Below are positions 3,293 to 59,561 of a DNA stretch of 64,000 nucleotides, piece after piece. Both the position numbers and the translations under genes were made by a program. The notes under the pieces were generated by a model. The model did not search any database. It was given only the letters and a program-made list of their open reading frames with translations, and was not told the origin of the DNA. Within the stretch, counting starts at the first letter, position 1. Every line of letters starts with the position of its first letter. The stretch spans positions 3,377-67,376 of IMG/VR virus record IMGVR_UViG_3300021083_000196, one strand, 5' to 3'. The stretch is from a virus.

Positions 3293-3475
3293 CTCATTTT
3301 CCTCCGTGATTGGGTTGGTTTATGGTTTTTTCAAGTAAATTAACAGCCTGACAACCAAGACATGGGATATCCTCCTTGCCGCATTCGCACAATGCGCCCA
3401 TACCATGTTGGCGAATAAACTTTATTGCCCATTTTGAGTCTTTCATTTCAATACTTTCTTTTTTCTCATCGTCGG

Positions 3476-3979
3476 TCATGTTTTCACCCGCTTCGGAAGC
3501 GGATAATATTCGTCCCTGATGTCGCCGATCTTCTTGAACATCTGGTCCGAACATTCGATTTCAAGGCCGATGAGTTCGAGGCAGGCATCAGTGGTCAGTG
3601 GGCAGCATCCTTTCTCACCGGCCATGATGTACTCCATCGGGTTATCGAATACGCGCAGCGGTTTGCGGAACGTCCGCGCCTCATAAACGTTCGTCATCCC
3701 CAGTATCGAATCATCACAGACCCGCAGATACCATTTCTTAGGCTTCTGGGGTTCCCATGCTACGACATTGAAGACTTCACCATTGTATGTCACCGGATAG
3801 AGCATGACATCGAAGTTCCCATCTTCTGGAGTGAAGACTCCGCAGCCATTGAAGCCCCCGACGAGGGACACACTGGCAGCCGCTGCCTTGTGGATCACAC
3901 TCGCCGGTGCGTTTTTCTTCTCAAGATACGCCTTGGCGCGATCCTTGGGATATAGAAGATACTCATCGCTGAGGTGCAT
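3476..3979 (-). CDS. hypothetical phage protein
   Basis: Likely start MHLSDEY after GAGGAG SD. Confidence 0.6.
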   Translation of the reverse strand: MHLSDEYLLYPKDRAKAYLEKKNAPASVIHKAAAASVSLVGGFNGCGVFTPEDGNFDVMLYPVTYNGEVFNVVAWEPQKPKKWYLRVCDDSILGMTNVYEARTFRKPLRVFDNPMEYIMAGEKGCCPLTTDACLELIGLEIECSDQMFKKIGDIRDEYYPLPKRVKT

Positions 3980-17723: not shown

Positions 17724-18083
17724 TCATTTCGCATTGCTCACATCATCATCGACAACCGTGCTGTGTTTTCCGTGGTGCTCGACATGTGTGGTGTGGGTGC
17801 CGCTGGCGGAGAAGTATATCGGATGATCGTTGCAGCCGAGATTAATAGCGTACAGCTTTAAATCATTGACCTGTGAAACAAGCACAGGTGTTTTACAGGC
17901 TTCTTCTATGGCCTCATCAGCTGCCGCTTCCTTATTCTTCTTGTCTACGCACACCTGATCGCCTTGGCTGCATGTGGTCGCCCAATGAACCACGCATACG
18001 GCGCAGATCACTGATATAGCAATTAAAGCAATTGCTATTAAGAAGACACATACGTTAGATAAAAATTCTTTTATCGTTTCCAT
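17724..18083 (-). CDS. membrane-anchored hypothetical protein
   Basis: N-terminal hydrophobic helix. Confidence 0.55.
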   Translation of the reverse strand: METIKEFLSNVCVFLIAIALIAISVICAVCVVHWATTCSQGDQVCVDKKNKEAAADEAIEEACKTPVLVSQVNDLKLYAINLGCNDHPIYFSASGTHTTHVEHHGKHSTVVDDDVSNAK

Positions 18084-28980: not shown

Positions 28981-30617
28981 GTTATTTTGATGTCTTTTAT
29001 CTTCTCTTTAAGTCCAATGCTGATGATGTAATCAAAGGCAATAAGGCTGTTGAGAAATCGACAAAAGATACCGAACAGGCACTGAAGAACACAAGGGATA
29101 CCACTCAGGAAGTTGGTGCCAATTTCGTGAAGATGGCAGAGTCGGTGGGTACTGCCATCGGCGCAATCGGCGGTCTTGAGATATTAAAGACCGGTGTCAA
29201 GAACGCGATCGATCTCAATACGAATCTGAAGGTCACTGCCGAGAATTTAGGCATGACCGCGCAGCAATTGAGAACCGCGCAGGAGGCCGCCAAACAGTTC
29301 GGTGGTACCGCAGAAGAAGGTCGCGCCGACGCCATAAGAATGGCGCAGGCCAACCTGATGACCAGACAAAAAGAACGTGATCCGGCGAAGATGATGTCCA
29401 CTCTCCGTGCCTATGTCATGGGTATGCCCGAAGAAAATAGAGTGCCATTTTTGCAACAATTCGGCATTAGCTCGGCGGGTATTAGACAGTTGACTAAGGT
29501 CGGTAACGGCGAATTTAATGCCGGATGGTCCACAGCCGCTGATATCGCCAAGGGCACAAACTCGGCTGGTGATACCGCATATGCTGCAAATAAGCTTGCC
29601 AATAAAGTCGGCGGCGAACAGGACAGTTTCTTCAATAGGCTCCTGATCTCGATCTCATCACCTCTTGATGGTTTCCTTAAAAGGTTTGGCGATCTTATAA
29701 GCGGCACTGGTGCCGGTGCCGGTGCGGCTGAGGTTATTGGCGGCACCACTCTTGCCGGATGGGGCGCATCTAAGGTCATTAAAGGCCTTTTCAAAGGGGG
29801 TAAAGCTGTCAAGGCGGCAACGATAGCCGCTCGCGGTGCATCGGCTGGGGATATCATGTATGGCGGTGCTACGGCGATTGCAGAAGGTGCCACGGCTGTT
29901 GCTGGTGGCCTCGCGTTTCTCGGGGGCGGAGAAATTTTATACGGGGCCAAGAAATTATCAGATTTATGGAGTCCTTTCATCGAGGCTCAACTGGTTAAGA
30001 ATATGACCAAAGATTTAAAGATGCCCGCGAAGCCGGTCAAAACGGGAAGCGGCGGCGATCTCGGCTTCTGGATGTCGCAGGGCTACACCAAAGAACAGGC
30101 GGCAGGTATCATGGCCAACATGCAGGCGGAGAGCGGCGGCAATGCCGGATCCGTGGGCGATGGCGGCGCGGCTCATGGCCTGTTCCAGTGGCATGAAAAG
30201 CGCAGACAGGCGATCAAGGCTGGGACAGGTATCGATATCAATACGGCGAGCAAGGCTGATCAGATGAAGGCCGCCGCATGGGAAATGAAAAACGGTCATA
30301 CCGGTTTCAATGATGCTTATTTCAGAACACTTGGCGGGGCCGATCAGGCCGGTGCTTACTTCGCGACGAACTTCGAGCATCCCGCGAATGCTTTGGCAAA
30401 ATCAATTTCACGCGGCAAGAGTGCGCTCTCGATCGCTTCCAGCCTTTCGTCGGCCTCCAGCGGCCCTGTGAATGTCAAGATCGATAAAATCGAGGTCGTT
30501 ACCCAAGCGACGGATGCCAATGCTATCGCTACCGGCATCAGCGGTGCCCTTGAGAATAAAATGTATACGGCCCTCGGATTTATTGCCAGCAACGTAGACA
30601 ATGGACAAAGCAGATGA
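28977..30617 (+). CDS. tape measure protein with phage tail lysozyme domain
   Basis: Ala/Gly-rich helical; AAGIMANMQAESG...GDGGAAHGLFQW. Confidence 0.85.
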   Translation: MSYFDVFYLLFKSNADDVIKGNKAVEKSTKDTEQALKNTRDTTQEVGANFVKMAESVGTAIGAIGGLEILKTGVKNAIDLNTNLKVTAENLGMTAQQLRTAQEAAKQFGGTAEEGRADAIRMAQANLMTRQKERDPAKMMSTLRAYVMGMPEENRVPFLQQFGISSAGIRQLTKVGNGEFNAGWSTAADIAKGTNSAGDTAYAANKLANKVGGEQDSFFNRLLISISSPLDGFLKRFGDLISGTGAGAGAAEVIGGTTLAGWGASKVIKGLFKGGKAVKAATIAARGASAGDIMYGGATAIAEGATAVAGGLAFLGGGEILYGAKKLSDLWSPFIEAQLVKNMTKDLKMPAKPVKTGSGGDLGFWMSQGYTKEQAAGIMANMQAESGGNAGSVGDGGAAHGLFQWHEKRRQAIKAGTGIDINTASKADQMKAAAWEMKNGHTGFNDAYFRTLGGADQAGAYFATNFEHPANALAKSISRGKSALSIASSLSSASSGPVNVKIDKIEVVTQATDANAIATGISGALENKMYTALGFIASNVDNGQSR

Positions 30618-39309: not shown

Positions 39310-40370
39310 GTTTAGGTTGGCTTGGTCCATTTCCTGCTGGTTTAACTACGGGTTTTCAAAGCATCGGTGCGGCATCGAGAAATGCTAATCGTGGCTATGG
39401 CGCTCCACAATCATTTCCTGCGGGTCTAACACAAAGCTATATAAATATCGGTGCTGTTCAGAAAAATCCGAACAATGCATGGGTTGACACATTTTCTGAC
39501 AGCGTTACAGCTTCTGATTCTCTCACGAGTAGTGCTGGATATACTAACACCTTCTCGGACAGCGTAACTGCCAATGATACACAGGCTGCTGTAGTAAACT
39601 ACCATCAAACCTTCTTGGACAGCGTAACCGCTGCCGACTCCGTCACCGCATCTCTAGCGGCGGTTCCCACGTTCTCAGATGCTGTGACCGCCTTGGATAC
39701 CTTCGGGGCTGCGATGGCGACATCGGCGACGTTCTCCGAATCCGTAACGCTCTCCGATTCATTCGTCGGCGGTATCGGCTATACCTTTACGTTCTCGGAC
39801 ACCGTGACAGCTTCCGATACCATGAACGGAAAAATGGGGGTTACTGCAACGATCGCCGACGGCATCTCCGTATCCGACTCCGTAATCGGCGGTATCGGGT
39901 ATATGGACTTCTTCAGCGATAATGTTACCGCCTCGGATTCATTCTCGGCCACGGTATCCCCGTCCCCAAACATCATTCTCTCCGGCACCCTTGACTTCGG
40001 ATACTCATATCGCATCCGCCACCAGATATCGACCTTCCTGAACTTCTCGATCTTCAATACTGATGACAACTTTATCAAGATCAACTTGACCAACATCGTG
40101 ACATCGCAGCCGATCTCTATCGTATCCGGTGTTCTCTCGATATATGCGCCAAACTCGATATCATCATCCGCGCCTGTCCTTTCACCGGCTGTCGTCCCCT
40201 TGAGCAGCGGATTCCAGTTCACGATCCCCCATACTGATGCGATTAACCTCGTGCCAGGGCTTTACTCATGGATAGCCATTGTGACGACCATAGATGGAAC
40301 CATCCATACTGTCACCTGTGGTGACATCAATCTTTCGACCGGTATAATCAAGGTAATGGAGAGACCGTAA
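39306..40370 (+). CDS. virion fibre protein with 20-aa repeats
   Basis: Eight TFSDSVTASD-type units at a 60-nt period. Confidence 0.65.
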   Translation: MSLGWLGPFPAGLTTGFQSIGAASRNANRGYGAPQSFPAGLTQSYINIGAVQKNPNNAWVDTFSDSVTASDSLTSSAGYTNTFSDSVTANDTQAAVVNYHQTFLDSVTAADSVTASLAAVPTFSDAVTALDTFGAAMATSATFSESVTLSDSFVGGIGYTFTFSDTVTASDTMNGKMGVTATIADGISVSDSVIGGIGYMDFFSDNVTASDSFSATVSPSPNIILSGTLDFGYSYRIRHQISTFLNFSIFNTDDNFIKINLTNIVTSQPISIVSGVLSIYAPNSISSSAPVLSPAVVPLSSGFQFTIPHTDAINLVPGLYSWIAIVTTIDGTIHTVTCGDINLSTGIIKVMERP

Positions 40371-40627
40371 TGGATGCAGGGGCTATTATTGACGCTATTG
40401 GACTTATCGCACTCCCAATTTTCGGCGGAATACTTTTCTTCTATTGGGACCAGATATCGAATCTGCATGAAAAATGTTCAGGGCTTGAGGAGAAACTTAA
40501 CAGCTTAAAGTTGCATGTCGCCGAAGAATATTTGAACCGCGACGACTTTAAGGACTCGATCAAAGAAATAAAAGATACTATCTTAGCAATGAATAGCAAG
40601 CTTGACCGCTTAGTGGAGAAACAATAA
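40370..40627 (+). CDS. holin-like membrane protein
   Basis: N-terminal TM, coiled coil, VAEEY..R.D; precedes the putative lysin. Confidence 0.5.
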   Translation: MDAGAIIDAIGLIALPIFGGILFFYWDQISNLHEKCSGLEEKLNSLKLHVAEEYLNRDDFKDSIKEIKDTILAMNSKLDRLVEKQ

Positions 40628-41052
40628 TGCCTCGTGGAATTAATCTGAACAACCCGATGAATCTGGAACGTAATTCGATCTCATGGCAGGGCGCATCGAC
40701 GCTACAAGATGATCCGCGATTTGTGAGATTCGAAACACCAGAAATGGGTGTTCGCGCGGGTATGAAAGTCCTCTTGACCTATCAGAACAAAGACGATCTC
40801 CAGAACATCTCGGCGATCATCACTAAATATGCACCACCCGCTGAAAACGATACTGCCGCATATATCAGCGATGTTAGCGCCCATTGCGGTGTCTCCCCCA
40901 CGGACTTCTTTGATGTCGAGGTGCCCGATAACATGATTCGTTTGGCGCAGGCGATCATAATTCATGAGCAAGGGCATTGCCCAGACGACAGCACTCCATT
41001 TTGGTATGAAAATGATGTATATGAATCTGCGGCCAAAGATGCATTAGGATAA
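40627..41052 (+). CDS. putative endolysin/lysozyme-like protein
   Basis: RG...NNP.N, F.TPE.G.RA, I..YAPP.ENDT.AY, I..HE.G. Confidence 0.7.
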   Translation: MPRGINLNNPMNLERNSISWQGASTLQDDPRFVRFETPEMGVRAGMKVLLTYQNKDDLQNISAIITKYAPPAENDTAAYISDVSAHCGVSPTDFFDVEVPDNMIRLAQAIIIHEQGHCPDDSTPFWYENDVYESAAKDALG

Positions 41053-41514
41053 GATATTGAGCTTGGAGAAATCTCCAAAATATTTTACAGCGGCTTTATT
41101 ATATGCGATAGCAGCTTCGACTTCAGAATCAAAATATCCAAGATGATTTTGTTTGATTCGTGCGTGCCACTTATTCCCTCTTTTACAAACCCCTTTATAC
41201 CTACTTGATGGATTTATTAATGTGGGCTTATTTTTATTCATCATGTTTTGCGATTTAGTAGCAAGTCGAAGATTGTACTTCTGATTATTAAGGCGATTTC
41301 CATCCTTGTGGTCGACTGACTTTCTTTTCATTATTTCGCAATGCATGAAAATGGTTTTTTTCTTATAAGATTTTTTAGTAGCGGTTTTTATAGGTAAGGT
41401 TTCACTTCGGATGGCATATCCATGAGAAATTTGCCATTTCCATTGCATAAGGAATTTGTAATCATCCTCATCAACCTGAACAAATTTTCCACCGGTTATT
41501 GTGATTATCTTCAT
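41044..41514 (-). CDS. HNH-AP2 homing endonuclease
   Basis: VDH.DGN.LNN...NLR; S.YKGV...W.A.I...LG.F..E.EAA.AYN. Confidence 0.9.
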   Translation of the reverse strand: MKIITITGGKFVQVDEDDYKFLMQWKWQISHGYAIRSETLPIKTATKKSYKKKTIFMHCEIMKRKSVDHKDGNRLNNQKYNLRLATKSQNMMNKNKPTLINPSSRYKGVCKRGNKWHARIKQNHLGYFDSEVEAAIAYNKAAVKYFGDFSKLNILS

Positions 41515-41564
41515 TTTTTTAACCTATAATTAACGTAAATAAATATTACCCGACAAAGCAATCC

Positions 41565-41593
41565 TTGAAAACATCTAAAATATAATATATGGT
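41565..41593 (+). promoter_or_regulatory. sigma70-like promoter for the tRNA locus
   Basis: TTGAAA-17nt-TATGGT; predicted +1 near 41600, the first tRNA base. Confidence 0.5.
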
Positions 41594-41599
41594 GATTCT

Positions 41600-41676
41600 A
41601 GCAGGATAGAGGAGCGTTCGTCCTCATCGGCCTCATAAGTCGAAGATCGGTGGTTAGAATCCATCTCCTGCAACCA
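41600..41676 (+). tRNA. tRNA-Met(CAT), initiator-like
   Basis: Cloverleaf TCGGC-CT CAT AA-GTCGA; unpaired 1:72; CCA; T-loop TTAGAAT. Confidence 0.85.
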
Positions 41677-41701
41677 AATTCTAAGATGGCCAACTCAGTA
41701 T

Positions 41702-41777
41702 GAGGCTGTCGACAAGAGGTAAAGTCAGCAGATTTTCATTCTGCGATTCGTGGGTTCAAATCCCATCAGCCTCACCA
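41702..41777 (+). tRNA. tRNA-Glu(TTC)
   Basis: GAGGCTG/CAGCCTC, GCAGA-TT TTC AT-TCTGC, CCA. Confidence 0.92.
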
Positions 41778-41793
41778 CTGGAGAAAGAACGAG

Positions 41794-41847
41794 ATGTTAC
41801 GAGAGACAAACAAGATTGTGGCGAAAGCGATTAAACCCATCAAATAG
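41794..41847 (+). CDS. attenuator leader peptide 1 (MLRETNKIVAKAIKPIK)
   Basis: GGAG SD at 41780; 10 of the last 11 codons are K/I/V/A, matching the next four tRNAs. Confidence 0.75.
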   Translation: MLRETNKIVAKAIKPIK

Positions 41848-41900
41848 GGCTGGTCAAATTCGTCTTGAATTATAACCCGCCCTCAACAGGCGGGTTTTTT
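41846..41900 (+). terminator. antiterminator/intrinsic terminator 1
   Basis: AACCCGCC-ctcaaca-GGCGGGTT plus T-run; upstream AGGGCtGGT can pair with ACCcGCCCT. Confidence 0.85.
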
Positions 41901-41923
41901 ATTACGTGGAGGAAACAGATTAT

Positions 41924-41997
41924 TGACGATTGGCCGAGGGGTTAGGCATACGCTTGATAAGCGTACTACAGTGGTTCAAGTCCACTATCGTCAACCA
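41924..41997 (+). tRNA. tRNA-Ile(GAT)
   Basis: TACGC-TT GAT AA-GCGTA; CCA. Confidence 0.92.
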
Positions 41998-42003
41998 AAA
42001 TAA

Positions 42004-42076
42004 TGGTGCGGAGTCGGATGGTTAGACAGCAGATTTTTAATCTGTACCAAAGTGGGTTCAATTCCCACCGCACCAA
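42004..42076 (+). tRNA. tRNA-Lys(TTT)
   Basis: TGGTGCG/CGCACCA, GCAGA-TT TTT AA-TCTGT; no encoded CCA. Confidence 0.88.
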
Positions 42077-42077
42077 C

Positions 42078-42156
42078 GGGGAATGGGACTGCTTAGGGTG
42101 GTCGCCTCACTTGCAATGAGGATCGCAGATCGGGGCAGAACCGATATTCTCCACCA
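42078..42156 (+). tRNA. tRNA-Ala(TGC)
   Basis: G3:U70 pair; CCTCA-CT TGC AA-TGAGG; T-loop GGCAGAA; CCA. Confidence 0.9.
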
Positions 42157-42162
42157 AATTAT

Positions 42163-42237
42163 AGGGGGTTAGCTCAGAGGCAGAGCGTCCGGCTTACATC
42201 CGGAAGGACGAGATTTCGAAATTCTCACTCTCTACCA
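42163..42237 (+). tRNA. tRNA-Val(TAC)
   Basis: TCCGG-CT TAC AT-CCGGA; CCA. Confidence 0.92.
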
Positions 42238-42238
42238 T

Positions 42239-42268
42239 TTGACATCAGGACCCGAATCGTGTCATCGT
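42239..42268 (+). promoter_or_regulatory. promoter for leader 2 (predicted leaderless mRNA)
   Basis: TTGACA-18nt-(TGn)CATCGT-6nt-ATG; no SD. Confidence 0.5.
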
Positions 42269-42274
42269 TATAAG

Positions 42275-42352
42275 ATGAAAACGATATCAACATCGATGTA
42301 TTCCAGTGATCGCACCTTCAATAGAGGTTGCGGCGCGGGGCATTTGGTGTAA
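42275..42352 (+). CDS. attenuator leader peptide 2 (MKTISTSMYSSDRTFNRGCGAGHLV)
   Basis: Codons 3-20 correspond to the downstream 12-tRNA array. Confidence 0.8.
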   Translation: MKTISTSMYSSDRTFNRGCGAGHLV

Positions 42353-42414
42353 GTTTTCTTAGATTTTTATACATCAAAACCCCACCCAAAGTGATTTAGG
42401 TGGGGTTTTTGTTT
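42337..42414 (+). terminator. antiterminator/intrinsic terminator 2
   Basis: AAAACCCCACC...GGTGGGGTTTTT; leader end GGGGcaTTTGGTGTA pairs with TACATCAAAaCCCC. Confidence 0.85.
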
Positions 42415-42451
42415 ATACGGTTATTGAACATTGTTGAGATATGATGATTTT

Positions 42452-42528
42452 TTCCGAGTAGCACAGACGGTAGTTGCGCCTGACTGTTAATCAGGATGTC
42501 CGTGGTTCGATTCCACGCTCGGGAACCA
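42452..42528 (+). tRNA. tRNA-Asn(GTT)
   Basis: CCTGA-CT GTT AA-TCAGG; CCA. Confidence 0.92.
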
Positions 42529-42532
42529 ATTC

Positions 42533-42608
42533 GTCTCTCTGGCGTAGCTGGTGCGCGCGTCTGTCTGAAGAACAGAAGGATGCCGTTCGATTCGGCGGGG
42601 AGACACCA
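42533..42608 (+). tRNA. tRNA-Phe(GAA)
   Basis: TCTGT-CT GAA GA-ACAGA; CCA. Confidence 0.9.
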
Positions 42609-42613
42609 AATAC

Positions 42614-42688
42614 GCGCTGGAGATGTTGGCGGGTGCATGCGAGTCTTCCAAACTTGATGATGGGGTTCGACTCCCCACCGGCGCACCA
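42614..42688 (+). tRNA. tRNA-Gly(TCC)
   Basis: CGAGT-CT TCC AA-ACTTG; CCA. Confidence 0.9.
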
Positions 42689-42694
42689 AATTGA

Positions 42695-42770
42695 CGCAGC
42701 ATAGCTTAGTGGCTAAAGCTCGTTCCTCATAAGAACGCTATCATGGGTTCGAGTCCCATTGCTGCTACCA
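42695..42770 (+). tRNA. tRNA(CAT): Ile2 or Met
   Basis: CGTTC-CT CAT AA-GAACG; C1/U72 mismatch; identity not resolvable by eye. Confidence 0.85.
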
Positions 42771-42774
42771 CTTC

Positions 42775-42849
42775 GCCTCTAAAGCATTGTTAGTGATGCA
42801 GTTGCCTTGTAAGCATCAGAAGTCGGCGCAACTCCGGCATGAGGCACCA
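42775..42849 (+). tRNA. tRNA-Thr(TGT)
   Basis: CT TGT AA loop; T-loop CGCAACT; CCA. Confidence 0.85.
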
Positions 42850-42855
42850 ATTCAT

Positions 42856-42930
42856 GGACACATAGCTCAACGGTAGAGCACCGCACTGTCACTGCGGAGG
42901 TCGTGGGGTCAGCACCCATTGTGTTCGCCA
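42856..42930 (+). tRNA. tRNA-Asp(GTC)
   Basis: CCGCA-CT GTC AC-TGCGG; G73; CCA. Confidence 0.9.
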
Positions 42931-42994
42931 ATTATGTGTGGATATGAACATTTTTTATTAGGTTCATATCCACATTTGTGTTACTTTCTTTTCT

Positions 42995-43429
42995 ATGAAA
43001 AAATGCATTAAATGTGAAAAAATAAAACAGTTAGATTCCTTTTATAAAAGAAATGACAGAAAAGATCGTTATTCTTCGTCATGTATTGAGTGCCAAAGAA
43101 AATATCTAAAAGAGCACTATCACAAAAATATCAAATATTATAAGGCGAAAGCCAGAAAAAATGATATTAACGCAATAGAACAAAGATTCCATTTTTTAGT
43201 GGATTATTTAAAAAATAACCCATGTGTTGACTGTGGAGAAGGCGACATTGTAGTCCTTCAGTTTGATCACGTTCGAGGAAAGAAATTTCGCAACATTTCT
43301 ATGATGCTACACAGAAAAATGTCATGGGAAAAAATACTTTTAGAAATAAAAAAGTGTGAGGTTAGGTGTTCAAATTGCCATGTTAGAAAAACGGCAAGGC
43401 AATTTAATTGGAAAAAATTGCATGTATAG
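42995..43429 (+). CDS. HNH endonuclease inserted in tRNA array 2
   Basis: CIKC...PCVDCGE.D...LQFDHVRG...KCEVRCSNCH. Confidence 0.88.
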   Translation: MKKCIKCEKIKQLDSFYKRNDRKDRYSSSCIECQRKYLKEHYHKNIKYYKAKARKNDINAIEQRFHFLVDYLKNNPCVDCGEGDIVVLQFDHVRGKKFRNISMMLHRKMSWEKILLEIKKCEVRCSNCHVRKTARQFNWKKLHV

Positions 43430-43496
43430 CTCAATGGAGTAGAGCACCAAGCTACGAACTTGGGGGTTAAGGGTTCGAGTCCTTTTACATGCGCCA
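43420..43496 (+). tRNA. tRNA-Arg(ACG)
   Basis: CCAAG-CT ACG AA-CTTGG; CCA. Confidence 0.92.
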
Positions 43497-43501
43497 ATTT
43501 T

Positions 43502-43575
43502 CTCGTAGTGACGGAATGGTTACGTGACGGTCTGCAAAACCGTTTATGGCAGTTCGATTCTGCCCTATGAGTCCA
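43502..43575 (+). tRNA. tRNA-Cys(GCA)
   Basis: ACGGT-CT GCA AA-ACCGT; U73; CCA. Confidence 0.92.
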
Positions 43576-43576
43576 C

Positions 43577-43668
43577 GGAAAGTTTAGTGCAGCGGCCTGC
43601 ACCCCGATCTTGAAAATCGGTGATAGTCAGCGATGGCTATGGGGATCGACACCACCAGCTTTCCTCCA
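43577..43668 (+). tRNA. tRNA-Ser(TGA)
   Basis: CCGAT-CT TGA AA-ATCGG; long variable arm; CCA. Confidence 0.85.
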
Positions 43669-43675
43669 ATTCTTC

Positions 43676-43764
43676 GGTGAGTTAACTTGGCAAGTGCCAA
43701 GCACGGTTTGCTAAACCGTTGGTGCCTTTACCGGCATGTGGATCAGGACCACATCTCTCCGCCA
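43676..43764 (+). tRNA. tRNA-Ser(GCT)
   Basis: ACGGT-TT GCT AA-ACCGT; long variable arm; G73; CCA. Confidence 0.85.
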
Positions 43765-43765
43765 T

Positions 43766-43842
43766 CGGTGTCGGCACAGGTTGGATTCTGGTCTCGACTG
43801 TAAATCGACGTAAATGTGGTTCGACTCCACAGGCACCGACCA
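43766..43842 (+). tRNA. tRNA-Tyr(GTA)
   Basis: TCGA-CT GTA AA-TCGA; C1:G72; short variable loop; CCA. Confidence 0.85.
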
Positions 43843-43849
43843 ATTTTAT

Positions 43850-43929
43850 AGGCATGTATCTCCTTTGTCTTCTAAACAAGTGAAAGAGTAATTGGACTCA
43901 TGTAGGTTCGAATCCTATCATGCCTGCCA
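43850..43929 (+). tRNA. atypical tRNA-Arg(TCT) lacking a canonical D-arm
   Basis: AGGCATG/CATGCCT-G-CCA, TTTGT-CT TCT AA-ACAAG, GTAGG-TTCGAAT-CCTAT; only 7 nt between acceptor and anticodon stems. Confidence 0.75.
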
Positions 43930-44037
43930 AAATATCCATTGCATTCTCTGGAGAACATCCGTTAGAGTCTTTTCTTGGGCATGTGCTCATGAGGAAACAA
44001 AATGTCAATCAGAAAAATCATAAGAGGAATCATCATA

Positions 44038-44253
44038 ATGTCAGATATCGCAGACAATGTTATCGCACTCCAAGGCGCAGTAAACTCGCTTACAACAGAA
44101 ATCGCTTCACTCACGGCAGCCGTTGGTGCTCTCCAAGCTCCTGCAGCTCCTACCGTAGACCTTTCTCCCGTGCTTGCGGCTATTGCTGACATCAAGGCTC
44201 AACTCGTTCCGACACCTGCTCCGGCAGCACCGGCGACGACTACAGGCTCATAA
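44038..44253 (+). CDS. small Ala-rich coiled-coil protein
   Basis: MSDIADNV after GAGGA; followed by a terminator. Confidence 0.7.
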   Translation: MSDIADNVIALQGAVNSLTTEIASLTAAVGALQAPAAPTVDLSPVLAAIADIKAQLVPTPAPAAPATTTGS

Positions 44254-44280
44254 CTTTATAAAAGCTATGATATATTAAAA

Positions 44281-44312
44281 AAAGCTGGGGGATAACACCC
44301 TCAGCTTTTTTT
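44281..44312 (+). terminator. intrinsic terminator
   Basis: AAAGCTGGGGG-ataacac-CCTCAGCTTT plus T-run. Confidence 0.8.
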
Positions 44313-44313
44313 G

Positions 44314-44342
44314 TTGCTTTAAAAACAGAATCATCATATCGT
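44314..44342 (+). promoter_or_regulatory. promoter for leader 3 (predicted leaderless mRNA)
   Basis: TTGCTT-17nt-TATCGT-6nt-ATG; no SD. Confidence 0.55.
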
Positions 44343-44348
44343 AGAACA

Positions 44349-44423
44349 ATGAAAACGAATTTGTTACAGCTCTGGCATCAACCGCTCCCACAACTGGGAG
44401 TTTTTGTGCTTGGGCGAATGTAG
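44349..44423 (+). CDS. attenuator leader peptide 3 (MKTNLLQLWHQPLPQLGVFVLGRM)
   Basis: Codons 5-16 are exclusively L/Q/W/H/P, matching the next six tRNAs. Confidence 0.8.
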   Translation: MKTNLLQLWHQPLPQLGVFVLGRM

Positions 44424-44475
44424 GCAATAACTCATAAAGTTATTAACCAACCCGCCCTAACAAGGCGGGTTTTTT
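44412..44475 (+). terminator. antiterminator/intrinsic terminator 3
   Basis: AACCCGCC-ctaacaa-GGCGGGTT plus T-run; GGGCG in the leader pairs with CGCCC around the AATAACT/AGTTATT stem. Confidence 0.85.
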
Positions 44476-44496
44476 GTTATTGAAGGAGAAATTAAA

Positions 44497-44579
44497 GGGG
44501 ATGTGATGAAATTGGTAGACTTCCCTGACTTAAAATCAGGGGCTTCGGCGTGTGAGTTCAAGTCTCACCATCCCCACCA
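44497..44579 (+). tRNA. tRNA-Leu(TAA)
   Basis: CCTGA-CT TAA AA-TCAGG; CCA. Confidence 0.92.
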
Positions 44580-44581
44580 AT

Positions 44582-44659
44582 GCCGGTGTAGCAGAATGGC
44601 AAATGCGGCGGTCTTAGGAACCGCGTCATCTGGAGGTTCGAGTCCTCTCACCGGCACCA
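44582..44659 (+). tRNA. tRNA-Leu(TAG)
   Basis: GCGGT-CT TAG GA-ACCGC; short variable region; CCA. Confidence 0.9.
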
Positions 44660-44665
44660 AATTAA

Positions 44666-44742
44666 CGGCATGTAGCGAAGTCTGGTATCGCGCTCCCCTT
44701 GGGAGGGAGAGATCGAAGGTTCAAATCCTTCTATGCCGACCA
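44666..44742 (+). tRNA. tRNA-Pro(TGG)
   Basis: CTCCC-CT TGG GA-GGGAG; C1:G72; CCA. Confidence 0.92.
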
Positions 44743-44746
44743 TTTT

Positions 44747-44820
44747 ACAGGGATCGTCTAGTGGCAAGACAAGGGCCTCCAAAACCTTTGACCGGTGTTC
44801 GATTCATCGTCCCTGTGCCA
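44747..44820 (+). tRNA. tRNA-Trp(CCA)
   Basis: CT CCA AA loop; G73; CCA. Confidence 0.88.
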
Positions 44821-44826
44821 GTCTGT

Positions 44827-44901
44827 GGTGTGTATAGCTCAAGGGTCGAGCGCGGGATTGTGGCTCCTGATATACGGGTTCGAGTCCCGTTACGCACCCC
44901 A
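44827..44901 (+). tRNA. tRNA-His(GTG)
   Basis: CGGGA-TT GTG GC-TCCTG; encoded G-1 and C73. Confidence 0.92.
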
Positions 44902-44904
44902 TAT

Positions 44905-44980
44905 TCCGAGGTCGTCTAAATGGCAAGGACATGTGATTTTGGCTCATATAATGTTGGTTCGAACCCAGCCCTCGGAACCA
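44905..44980 (+). tRNA. tRNA-Gln(TTG)
   Basis: TGTGA-TT TTG GC-TCATA; U1:A72; CCA. Confidence 0.9.
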
Positions 44981-45057
44981 CCCTTTACTTTGATAGAAAA
45001 ATGCTGTTAGATTTCTGAGCCGCAATGTCGCGGCTTCTCTGAAAGGAAATCTAAAAT

Positions 45058-45471
45058 ATGTCTAACCAACTTTTCGAAAAAGCTTCACCACTCTTTGCTG
45101 CTCCGGTTCCTGCGCTGCCGACCCTGATGCAAGCGCAAGTCGATATGCTCACCAATCTCGTTGCAAAGTTCTCTGGCCTTGACCTGACCAAAGCGACCAC
45201 CACCGCGCTGGCTATCATCATCGGCGGCCAACAACCGAACACCGCGATTGCTGCAGCATCTGTTCTCGTCAAAGCACAGGCTAAAGAACAGGGCGTAGAG
45301 ATCGAAGATCAAGATGCTAACGTCATTGCTCAGGCGGTGACCAACGGCGTTCTGGCATCGATCCAGCTCTCGATTACGGCACAGGTGGCAGCCAGTCCAG
45401 CCGCTAATCAAGGAGGCGTTGAAGCAGGTGCGACAGCTCCCGCCGCATCAGCAGAAGCAGGCACTAACTAA
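45058..45471 (+). CDS. Ala-rich hypothetical protein
   Basis: 137 aa; GAAAGGA SD. Confidence 0.7.
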   Translation: MSNQLFEKASPLFAAPVPALPTLMQAQVDMLTNLVAKFSGLDLTKATTTALAIIIGGQQPNTAIAAASVLVKAQAKEQGVEIEDQDANVIAQAVTNGVLASIQLSITAQVAASPAANQGGVEAGATAPAASAEAGTN

Positions 45472-45513
45472 TATCCAAAATCAGGTCCTTAATATTAAAA
45501 AGGCCTGACTGAT

Positions 45514-45544
45514 ACGGCAGCTCCTTAGATGGGGCTGCCGTTTT
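45514..45544 (+). terminator. intrinsic terminator
   Basis: CGGCAGCTCC-ttagat-GGGGCTGCCG-TTTT. Confidence 0.75.
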
Positions 45545-45619
45545 CATTGCGGGTTCCCAGATTTTGCAATACAATTAAGATATTCTCTAATTGTAGAGGG
45601 CAACTGAAAGGAAACTAAA

Positions 45620-45874
45620 ATGAGCACATTTATCGCAACTGCAGAAAAGGTGGCCTCCGAGGCCGAACACTTCACCGTTGAACTCGCTGAAAAGGTCGAG
45701 GCTGTGGCCAAGAAGGGTTACGAAGAAGTTGTGGCCCTTATCGAAGGTCACAAGGCGGCTGTAGCGGGAAACGCGCCTGCTGCTCCTGTGGCTGCTGCTG
45801 CGGCCTCTGGAGCTGTCGAGGCTGCTCCTGCTGCCGCCCCGACTGCTGAAGCTGCTACAACAACGACTGCTTAA
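45620..45874 (+). CDS. Ala/Glu-rich hypothetical protein
   Basis: 84 aa; GAAAGGA SD. Confidence 0.7.
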   Translation: MSTFIATAEKVASEAEHFTVELAEKVEAVAKKGYEEVVALIEGHKAAVAGNAPAAPVAAAAASGAVEAAPAAAPTAEAATTTTA

Positions 45875-45877
45875 AAG

Positions 45878-46066
45878 ATGACGGCGCGGGAACGACTATT
45901 CTTCATGATCTGGGGTCTAGTAATGTTCCCGCTCCTCATTCTATGGGTGGCCGTCGATTTCAAAATGGGTGCCGAGGTTGTTATCGCCCTGTTGACTTAC
46001 ATGGGCGGCGTGAAATTTCTTTTAACAAAAGATGCGGATTGCCAAGGAGCACACGATGGGAATTAA
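45878..46066 (+). CDS. two-TM membrane protein (holin candidate)
   Basis: Two hydrophobic helices; precedes the spanin pair. Confidence 0.5.
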   Translation: MTARERLFFMIWGLVMFPLLILWVAVDFKMGAEVVIALLTYMGGVKFLLTKDADCQGAHDGN

Positions 46067-59164: not shown

Positions 59165-59264
59165 TAGAGGAACATGCGATAAAAGAAATGCCGATTTGAA
59201 CGGCTATGCAGCTTTTTTAAAGCTGTGTTCAACCAATGAAGTATCTCTTATCTATCGCCATCTA
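59165..59264 (-). ncRNA. Y RNA-like 4 (Ro-binding stem plus T-arm hairpin)
   Basis: TAGA-TGGCG...TACTTCA...GCATGTTCC-TCTA; internal GCCG-TTCAAAT-CGGC. Confidence 0.75.
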
Positions 59265-59417: not shown

Positions 59418-59550
59418 AACAGGGGAATAAGCGGAAAGACGTTTTTTACGTGCTCTACCAATTGAGCTACCCACCCCGAAGGGCAGGGATGGACTCGAAC
59501 CACCAACCCCGTCATTACAAATGAAGAACTTCTTTCCTACGCCACCTGTT
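59418..59550 (-). ncRNA. yrlA: YrlA-type Y RNA 2
   Basis: AACAGG-TGGCG...TTCTTCA...GCTTATTCC-CCTGTT; GGTTCGAGTCC then TAGCTCAATTGGTAGAGC. Confidence 0.85.
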
Positions 59551-59561
59551 TTATCTATACA

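Follow-up and report, generated by a model that had tools for sequence, protein, structure and literature searches.

A candidate leader-peptide attenuator with codons that match the downstream genes of a phage tRNA array

The 67-kb virus record IMGVR_UViG_3300021083_000196 of IMG/VR, most of which is covered by the 64,000-nucleotide stretch analysed here (positions 3,377 to 67,376 of the record, hereafter the window), encodes tail-sheath, portal, tape-measure and helicase genes together with an array of tRNA genes that ARAGORN places at window positions 41600-44980 on the + strand. Three short open reading frames (ORFs) within this array, designated leaders 1 to 3, are each followed by an intrinsic terminator and then by a group of tRNA genes, and each contains a block of codons that matches its own downstream tRNA group alone, the three blocks being mutually disjoint. 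The third, leader 3 (44349-44423; all coordinates are those of the window and the + strand unless stated otherwise), has twelve consecutive codons that are read by the six tRNAs encoded immediately beyond its terminator. Judged from the sequence and from modelled RNA folding, leader 3 is most likely a ribosome-mediated, trp-type attenuator that would feed decoding capacity back onto transcription of the phage tRNA genes.

The leader 3 ORF has 24 codons followed by TAG (MKTNLLQLWHQPLPQLGVFVLGRM), and codons 5-16 (44361-44396) are TTG TTA CAG CTC TGG CAT CAA CCG CTC CCA CAA CTG, all specifying Leu, Gln, Trp, His or Pro. The genes presumed to be regulated are located at 44497-44980, the first beginning twenty bases past the terminator and its T run, and encode tRNA-Leu(TAA), Leu(TAG), Pro(TGG), Trp(CCA), His(GTG) and Gln(TTG), as called by ARAGORN with scores of 49.7-66 bits for the Rfam tRNA family. 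Every codon in the block is assigned to one of these species, with three read by Leu(TAG), three by Gln, two each by Leu(TAA) and Pro, and one each by Trp and His. This codon run and the six matching tRNAs, both Leu boxes included, are therefore present as the initial annotation had described them. A six-frame scan established that the leader 3 run is the longest series of Leu, Pro, Trp, His and Gln codons in the window, followed by runs of 11 at 17900 and 10 at 29907 on the minus strand, and a run of at least 12 occurred in none of 200 first-order Markov simulations of the window. Given a frequency for this codon set of 0.185, as measured in the 25 long ORFs of the phage, 12 of 12 in-set codons have a probability of 1.6e-9 per position; conditional on such a run, representation of all six tRNA species has P = 0.20. 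When the comparison is confined to the 15 small ORFs that end at most 140 nt upstream of the head of a tRNA group (window 40001-46000), the corresponding p for leader 3 is ~2.5e-7. Two hallmarks of the attenuator class are thus present, namely a short ORF located directly 5′ of the regulated genes and a cluster of regulatory codons tied to those genes.

The same organization is repeated twice upstream. The leader 1 unit (41794-41901) consists of the ORF MLRETNKIVAKAIKPIK at 41794-41847, with the block KIVAKAIK at 41812-41835 in which all eight codons belong to the group that follows, and a terminator at 41874-41896, beyond which are genes for tRNA-Ile, tRNA-Lys, an Ala-like tRNA and tRNA-Val. 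The leader 2 unit (42275-42410) has the ORF MKTISTSMYSSDRTFNRGCGAGHLV at 42275-42352 and terminator arms at 42378-42386 and 42399-42407. Codons 3-20 of leader 2, 18 of 18, fall within the set read by the 12 tRNA species that follow, and each of the 12, including both Ser tRNAs (TCA/TCG and AGT) and both Arg tRNAs (CGC and AGA), has at least one codon in the block, a full coverage with P = 0.0033. It is from their position and coverage that leaders 1 and 2 gain their weight.

Only one relative of the phage was found, a 70-kb viral contig designated G001, which is syntenic with the window at ~70% nucleotide identity (64-77% in genome-wide blastn matches), with sheath and baseplate proteins that are 76% and 82% identical. 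The array is present in G001 with all three leader ORFs and all three terminators, and the codon blocks of leaders 1, 2 and 3 (9, 17 and 12 codons, respectively) are again wholly within their sets. All 12 block codons of G001 leader 3 (MKKNLLQPWHLQQLPLGAFMLGR) are in-set and differently ordered, and in both leaders 2 and 3 the order and composition of the block differ between the two phages; every base of the leader 1 block is identical. Such reshuffling within the set is the pattern expected if codon identity, rather than peptide sequence, has been selected. From the ATG to the T tract, window and G001 sequences are 87%, 68% and 74% identical for leaders 1, 2 and 3, respectively.

Searches of viral contigs with the downstream protein and the baseplate protein returned G001 alone, as did the leader 3 DNA pattern, and the terminator DNA pattern had no matches. 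Searching viral contigs with neighbouring proteins revealed no relatives, and the tail sheath had five matches, one of them close. A 141-aa protein had 106 distant relatives among viral contigs, with no tRNA array in the 60 loci scanned of 80 kept. No relatives were detected among metagenome contigs by using the leader 1 pattern or the baseplate protein, nor among genome contigs, and GenBank phages yielded no near DNA match, a distant search matching single tRNAs only and the best baseplate protein identity being 47.7%. Among sequencing runs listed as containing the stretch there are two, both of DNA and perhaps the source of the record itself, and none of RNA.

The leader 3 transcript is predicted to fold more stably than expected by chance (z = -3.98, with none of 200 shuffled sequences as good), and three parts can be distinguished in its minimum-free-energy fold. 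Region 1 (44365-44390), which lies inside the codon block, and region 2 (44395-44422) form the first, a long helix. Region 2 contains TGGGAG (44395-44400), a U run and GGGCG (44412-44416), the putative antiterminator strand. TGGGAG pairs with CTCCCA (44385-44390) of region 1 in an internal hairpin (44385-44400) that was also noted in the initial annotation and that, with its T run, is flagged as terminator-like by the scan in both phages; this hairpin and U run may be a pause site. The second part is a perfect AATAACT/AGTTATT hairpin (44426-44444) and the third an intrinsic terminator (44450-44475) with arms ACCCGCC (44450-44456) and GGCGGGT (44464-44470), loop CTAACAA and a terminal TTTTTT. 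The terminator scan places the stem at 44449-44471, with eight pairs, six of them G-C, ahead of the T run, and the hairpin has a predicted energy of -12.4 kcal/mol. Its 5′ arm includes CGCCC (44453-44457), the partner proposed for GGGCG, so that the antiterminator helix would enclose the middle hairpin.

To model the effect of translation, the RNAs were folded with a ribosome footprint masked codon by codon and with the transcript ending before the 3′ arm of the terminator. With the modelled A-site on codons 2-17 of leader 3, GGGCG pairs with CGCCC, and from codon 21 to the stop the 5′ arm is free. The pairing across the AATAACT/AGTTATT hairpin that had been claimed from inspection is thus reproduced in these constrained folds. 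The same behaviour is predicted for all six leaders of the two phages. A G-rich segment holds the terminator 5′ arm as long as the A-site lies within the matched codons and, once the A-site has moved to the final few codons or the stop, the arm is released, with 0-3 nt paired. In all six, the stop codon is 4-11 nt from the antiterminator strand. An intrinsic terminator separates each leader ORF from its tRNA genes, and a ribosome that has reached the last part of the ORF is predicted to mask the antiterminator. For leader 3, the predicted energies of antiterminator and terminator are -15.6 vs -12.4 kcal/mol and, for the G001 copy, -19.3 vs -15.3 kcal/mol.

Because MAFFT does not place the inner and middle hairpins or the terminator in register between the two sequences, the helices of the two leader 3 copies were compared from separate folds. 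The helix of regions 1 and 2 (1:2 helix) is present in the full-length folds of both, overlapping the regulatory codons, and C31:G58 in the window is replaced by U31:A58 in G001, a compensatory change. The sequence TGCTTGGGCG of region 2 is unchanged. The G001 middle hairpin, AGAGU/GCUCU, differs wholly in sequence and is retained at the same place, and the G001 terminator has one extra C-G pair across its two arms (-15.3 kcal/mol). This comparison of the two copies revealed no change that would disrupt the structure.

Leader 3 was initially also proposed to have its own promoter and to be insulated by a terminator upstream, and both proposals hold in part. A weak sigma-70-like site is present at 44314-44342, with TTGCTT (44314-44319) separated by a 17-nt spacer from TATCGT (44337-44342), a putative -10 element that ends 6 nt 5′ of the ATG. 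The geometry recurs at G001 leader 3 (TTGCAA-17-TATTGT-6 nt-ATG), and leaders 2 and 3 of both phages conform to TTGnnn, a 17-18-nt spacer and nATnnT ending exactly 6 nt before the ATG. The leader 3 site is, however, below the 9-of-12 threshold of the promoter scan and so is not listed; of the four leader 2 and leader 3 sites, the scan calls only that of G001 leader 2. With a spacing of 6 nt, transcription would be expected to start at the A of the ATG, and the leader 2 and leader 3 mRNAs would then be leaderless. Leader 1, directly after a tRNA-Glu gene, has GGAG/GAGG upstream, with GGAG 10 nt before the ATG, and in that position is probably translated from the array transcript. The first promoter-like site of the array (TTGAAA-17-TATGGT, window 41565-41593), conserved in G001, ends 6 nt before tRNA-Met (41600), the same spacing as at leaders 2 and 3. 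The upstream terminator is also present in the window (44276-44313; a 16-pair stem followed by a T run) and belongs to a preceding ORF of 83 aa (44002-44253). G001 has neither this ORF nor its terminator at the corresponding place, and insulation is therefore outside the conserved unit.

These features suggest the following sequence of events. Starting at or beside the A of the ATG, as the position of the promoter-like hexamers suggests, RNA polymerase would synthesize an mRNA from which a ribosome translates the 24-codon leader. Quick decoding of codons 5-16 would bring the ribosome to the last codons or the stop, where it covers GGGCG, the terminator hairpin would then form and transcription would stop before the tRNA genes. 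Were any of the six tRNA species scarce, the ribosome would stall within the block, melting the 1:2 helix and freeing GGGCG, which could pair with the terminator 5′ arm around the middle hairpin and so allow polymerase to read through into the tRNA genes. Because read-through would yield the very tRNAs whose scarcity caused the stall, such a leader would be a negative-feedback controller of tRNA supply. Leaders 1 and 2 would act likewise on their own tRNA groups. The initial proposal of a leader-peptide attenuator matched to six tRNAs is in this way supported by the footprint folding and by the like layout at six leaders. A more tentative suggestion, and one we regard as doubtful, is that the array has three independent closed-loop controllers, each leader being an isoacceptor-level codon register of its own sub-operon that senses the state of the host tRNA pool.

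Several observations weigh against an attenuator of this kind. Leader 3 has no Shine-Dalgarno sequence, nor does leader 2, the leader 3 promoter is below the scan threshold, and the leaderless status of the leader 2 and leader 3 mRNAs is deduced from promoter spacing. The GGGCG:CGCCC helix is only 5 bp, and a duplex as good or better occurs in 174 of 1000 dinucleotide-shuffled sequences. In the five remaining leaders, duplexes with the 5′ arm that are equal or better occur in 16, 29, 65, 40 and 71 per 1000 shuffles, and the tests for the three window leaders, combined by Fisher's method and worked by hand, give ~0.01. The full-length minimum-free-energy fold retains the terminator whichever codon is masked, so that the switch would have to be kinetic. 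With the 3′ arm still unmade, the antiterminator already forms without a ribosome in four of the six leaders, leader 3 among them, and the 1:2 helix may therefore not act here as an anti-antiterminator; in transcripts ending before the 3′ arm, it outcompetes the antiterminator in two of the six leaders, neither of them leader 3. Taken singly, the codon runs of leaders 1 and 2 are ordinary in six-frame space, the window having three runs of at least 8 for the leader 1 set and four other runs of 17-18 for the leader 2 set. Four of the sequences counted as tRNAs in the window (Ala, Ser-GCT, Tyr and Arg-TCT), assigned by anticodon loop, fold and synteny, are atypical, and all four (42079-42156, 43669-43764, 43765-43838 and 43850-43926) are missed by ARAGORN at default settings. 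The comparison with G001 rests on two genomes and few independent events. The 74% identity of leader 3 is similar to, and not strikingly higher than, the 68% of the tRNA genes, a value pooled from 17 pairs that were named by ARAGORN in both phages or, for the Ala-like gene, paired by eye, with the Thr, Asp, Arg, Ser and Tyr pairs excluded. Leu, Pro, His and Gln codons (CTN, CCN and CAN) are, moreover, single-base neighbours, which makes turnover within the set in leader 3 less surprising than a naive estimate of 0.2 per change would imply.

In one alternative, the leader ORF is translated and senses decoding but acts by a route other than a hairpin switch. Ribosome occupancy might, for example, govern Rho access, how the tRNA precursor is processed by RNases or how stable it is, or the release of a polymerase paused at CTCCCA/TGGGAG and the U run. 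A strong codon match is combined with an antiterminator helix that is short and statistically unexceptional, and the terminator-like flag on the internal hairpin in both phages is also consistent with such a route. We nevertheless consider it unlikely, given the canonical intrinsic terminator between each leader and its tRNAs, and the pairing that is predicted to exclude that terminator in all six leaders, where the position of the stop codon would allow a ribosome to mask that pairing. A signal of amino-acid starvation, conveyed by uncharged tRNA rather than by tRNA amount, would leave the attenuator itself in place. A stalled ribosome cannot distinguish a missing from an uncharged tRNA, and the multivalent leaders of the ilv and thr operons do respond to several amino acids. 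Extra tRNA cannot, however, relieve a lack of amino acid, and a register at the level of isoacceptors (both Leu boxes in leader 3, and both Ser and both Arg boxes in leader 2) is a better fit to tRNA species, so that starvation appears quite unlikely to be the signal.

The small ORFs could, finally, be small functional peptides or chance frames rather than sensors, with promoters and terminators that merely punctuate the array. The lack of Shine-Dalgarno sequences at leaders 2 and 3 and the likeness of the C-terminal tails as peptides (GVFVLGR in the window and GAFMLGR in G001) are in keeping with this, as is the apparent absence of such leaders from the tRNA regions scanned in phages T5, RSP15, Marzo and Aswh_1, which argues that phage tRNA arrays do not need them. 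A scripted scan of the T5, RSP15 and Marzo tRNA regions produced no candidate leader below p ~3e-3, the annotated small ORFs in the T5 region are not leader-like, and none of the ORFs upstream of 10 tRNA groups in Aswh_1 matched; the GAP32 region has only four scattered tRNAs. Set against this are three separate ORFs, each with a contiguous block drawn solely from its own downstream tRNA set, the coverage by leader 2 of all 12 species (P = 0.0033), a chance probability of 1.6e-9 for the leader 3 block, and residues that are reshuffled within the set between the phages rather than conserved as a peptide. An origin of the three blocks unrelated to sensing is, on this evidence, very unlikely.

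A trp-type attenuator that is multivalent, as in the ilv and thr operons, has clear precedents in its mechanism; the difference is in the target, which is tRNAs, and in the register, which is the species of the leader's own sub-operon. In the trp leader (trpL) of E. coli and Salmonella, a short ORF has its regulatory codons in the 5′ strand of a 1:2 helix, 2:3 pairing forms the antiterminator and 3:4 pairing the terminator, and region 2 is covered once the ribosome has reached the stop codon. Leader 3 shares the short ORF and the terminator and, as predicted by folding, an antiterminator and its masking at the stop codon; a possible 1:2 helix that includes the regulatory codons is seen in the full-length fold. 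By contrast, trpL controls amino-acid biosynthesis genes and has codons for one amino acid, whereas leader 3 precedes tRNA genes and has codons for five amino acids and six tRNA species. Leader 3 is not a member of the Rfam Trp_leader family RF00513 (22.4 bits vs a gathering threshold of 41; E = 0.31) and, at Rfam gathering thresholds, the whole window has only tRNA matches. The ilvGMEDA leader has Leu, Val and Ile codons, and the thr leader Thr and Ile codons. Their codons are mixed, as in leader 3, and a shortage of any one of the amino acids results in read-through, but they control enzymes of shared pathways through two or three amino acids, whereas the phage leaders correspond to 4, 12 and 6 tRNA species and the tRNAs themselves would be regulated. 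G001 leader 2 has a weak match to Thr_leader, at 22 bits vs 55 far below the threshold.

The operon for phenylalanyl-tRNA synthetase, pheST, is controlled by a leader-peptide attenuator (pheM). There, as proposed for the phage leaders, the controlled product is a component of the decoding machinery and not a biosynthetic enzyme; pheST is, however, a protein-coding synthetase operon for which a single amino acid is sensed, and the phage leaders precede tRNA genes. An attenuator-like leader at the tRNA-Phe genes of E. coli could not be substantiated, as pheV and pheU of strain K-12 have no Phe-rich leader and their promoters abut the tRNA. T-box riboswitches also couple tRNA status to a choice between terminator and antiterminator upstream of translation-related genes, but in these it is the RNA itself that binds uncharged tRNA, and neither ribosome nor ORF takes part; no T-box match was obtained in Rfam at E <=1 in 41000-45500 or at the gathering threshold in the whole window. 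Leaderless short ORFs encoding polycysteine in mycobacteria are described as Cys-responsive attenuators (bioRxiv 10.1101/834739). As suggested here for leaders 2 and 3, these ORFs lack a Shine-Dalgarno sequence and have their start codon at the transcript 5′ end; the targets given there are protein-coding, the signal is one amino acid and the setting is cellular rather than viral. A search that did not extend to old subscription papers and supplementary files found no publication on leader-peptide attenuation of tRNA genes.

Other features of the array were recorded. A GGAGG/GGAG motif is present 8-15 nt past the terminators of leaders 1 and 3 and before the first tRNA (window 41908-41912 and 44485-44488), and is conserved in G001 within GGAGGAAACAGATT and AAGGAGAA (minus strand of contig L111) with no conserved start codon after it. 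Between the leader 2 terminator and the first tRNA (window 42419-42452), ~30 nt (GGTTATTGAACATTGTTGA..ATATGATGATTTTT) are nearly identical in G001 and may represent a promoter of a different kind or a signal for processing. After its leader 2 terminator, G001 has an extra tRNA-like gene (L111 4140-4225, minus strand) with ~9 bases inserted in the anticodon arm, for which ARAGORN gives the anticodon as '??? (gc)' and Rfam a tRNA score of 58.4 bits; it has no counterpart in the window. Of the four atypical tRNA-like genes in the window, those for Ala, Ser-GCT and Tyr also receive no Rfam call and Arg-TCT scores 33.6 bits. The Ala-TGC-like gene has a G3:U70 pair and a non-canonical T loop, the T loop of the Ser-GCT-like gene and the D arm of the Arg-TCT-like gene are odd, and the Tyr-GTA-like gene is without a long variable arm; these genes may be degenerate, or unusual but functional. 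ARAGORN also reports a tRNA-Phe(AAA) at 59182-59249 and a tRNA-Thr(TGT) at 59478-59552, both on the minus strand, neither of which reaches the Rfam tRNA gathering score, and these are probably false calls.

The ORFs at 41044-41514 (minus strand) and 42995-43429 match HNH endonuclease families in PHROGs. The G001 array has ORFs at other points, between Met and Thr and between Pro and Trp (L111 ~3385-3715 and ~1745-2135, both on the minus strand), that are suspected, solely from their location between tRNAs, to encode homing endonucleases. Around leader 3 and its tRNAs are three small ORFs rich in Ala and Pro (44002-44253, 45058-45471 and 45620-45874). The first two have no match in PHROGs, and the product of 45058-45471 is 59% identical to its G001 counterpart, with the invariant stretch DQDANVIAQAVTNGVL.

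Why phages carry tRNA genes, and what controls their expression, is debated, with compensation for codon usage, loss of host tRNAs and escape from tRNA-cleaving defences all having been proposed. A leader that reads decoding capacity for the tRNAs that it gates would supply the missing regulatory logic, namely supply on demand with negative feedback, and would bring the tRNA pool, in addition to amino-acid metabolism, under attenuation of the classical kind. The system is a clean case, in that three leaders of disjoint codon content lie within 3.4 kb of array and the same logic is maintained, with the codons reshuffled, in a diverged relative. Each leader predicts which tRNA depletions would induce which sub-operon, and compact, programmable sensors of tRNA availability might be built from leaders of this type. 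The six tRNA genes beyond leader 3 are probably transcribed mainly when the tRNAs they encode become limiting for translation. On the more tentative reading, in which each leader is an isoacceptor-level register, the phage could replenish exactly those tRNA species that the host has lost, for example to anticodon nucleases or host shut-off, while avoiding the cost of making others, and the leaders would constitute a virus-encoded sensor of the host tRNA pool.

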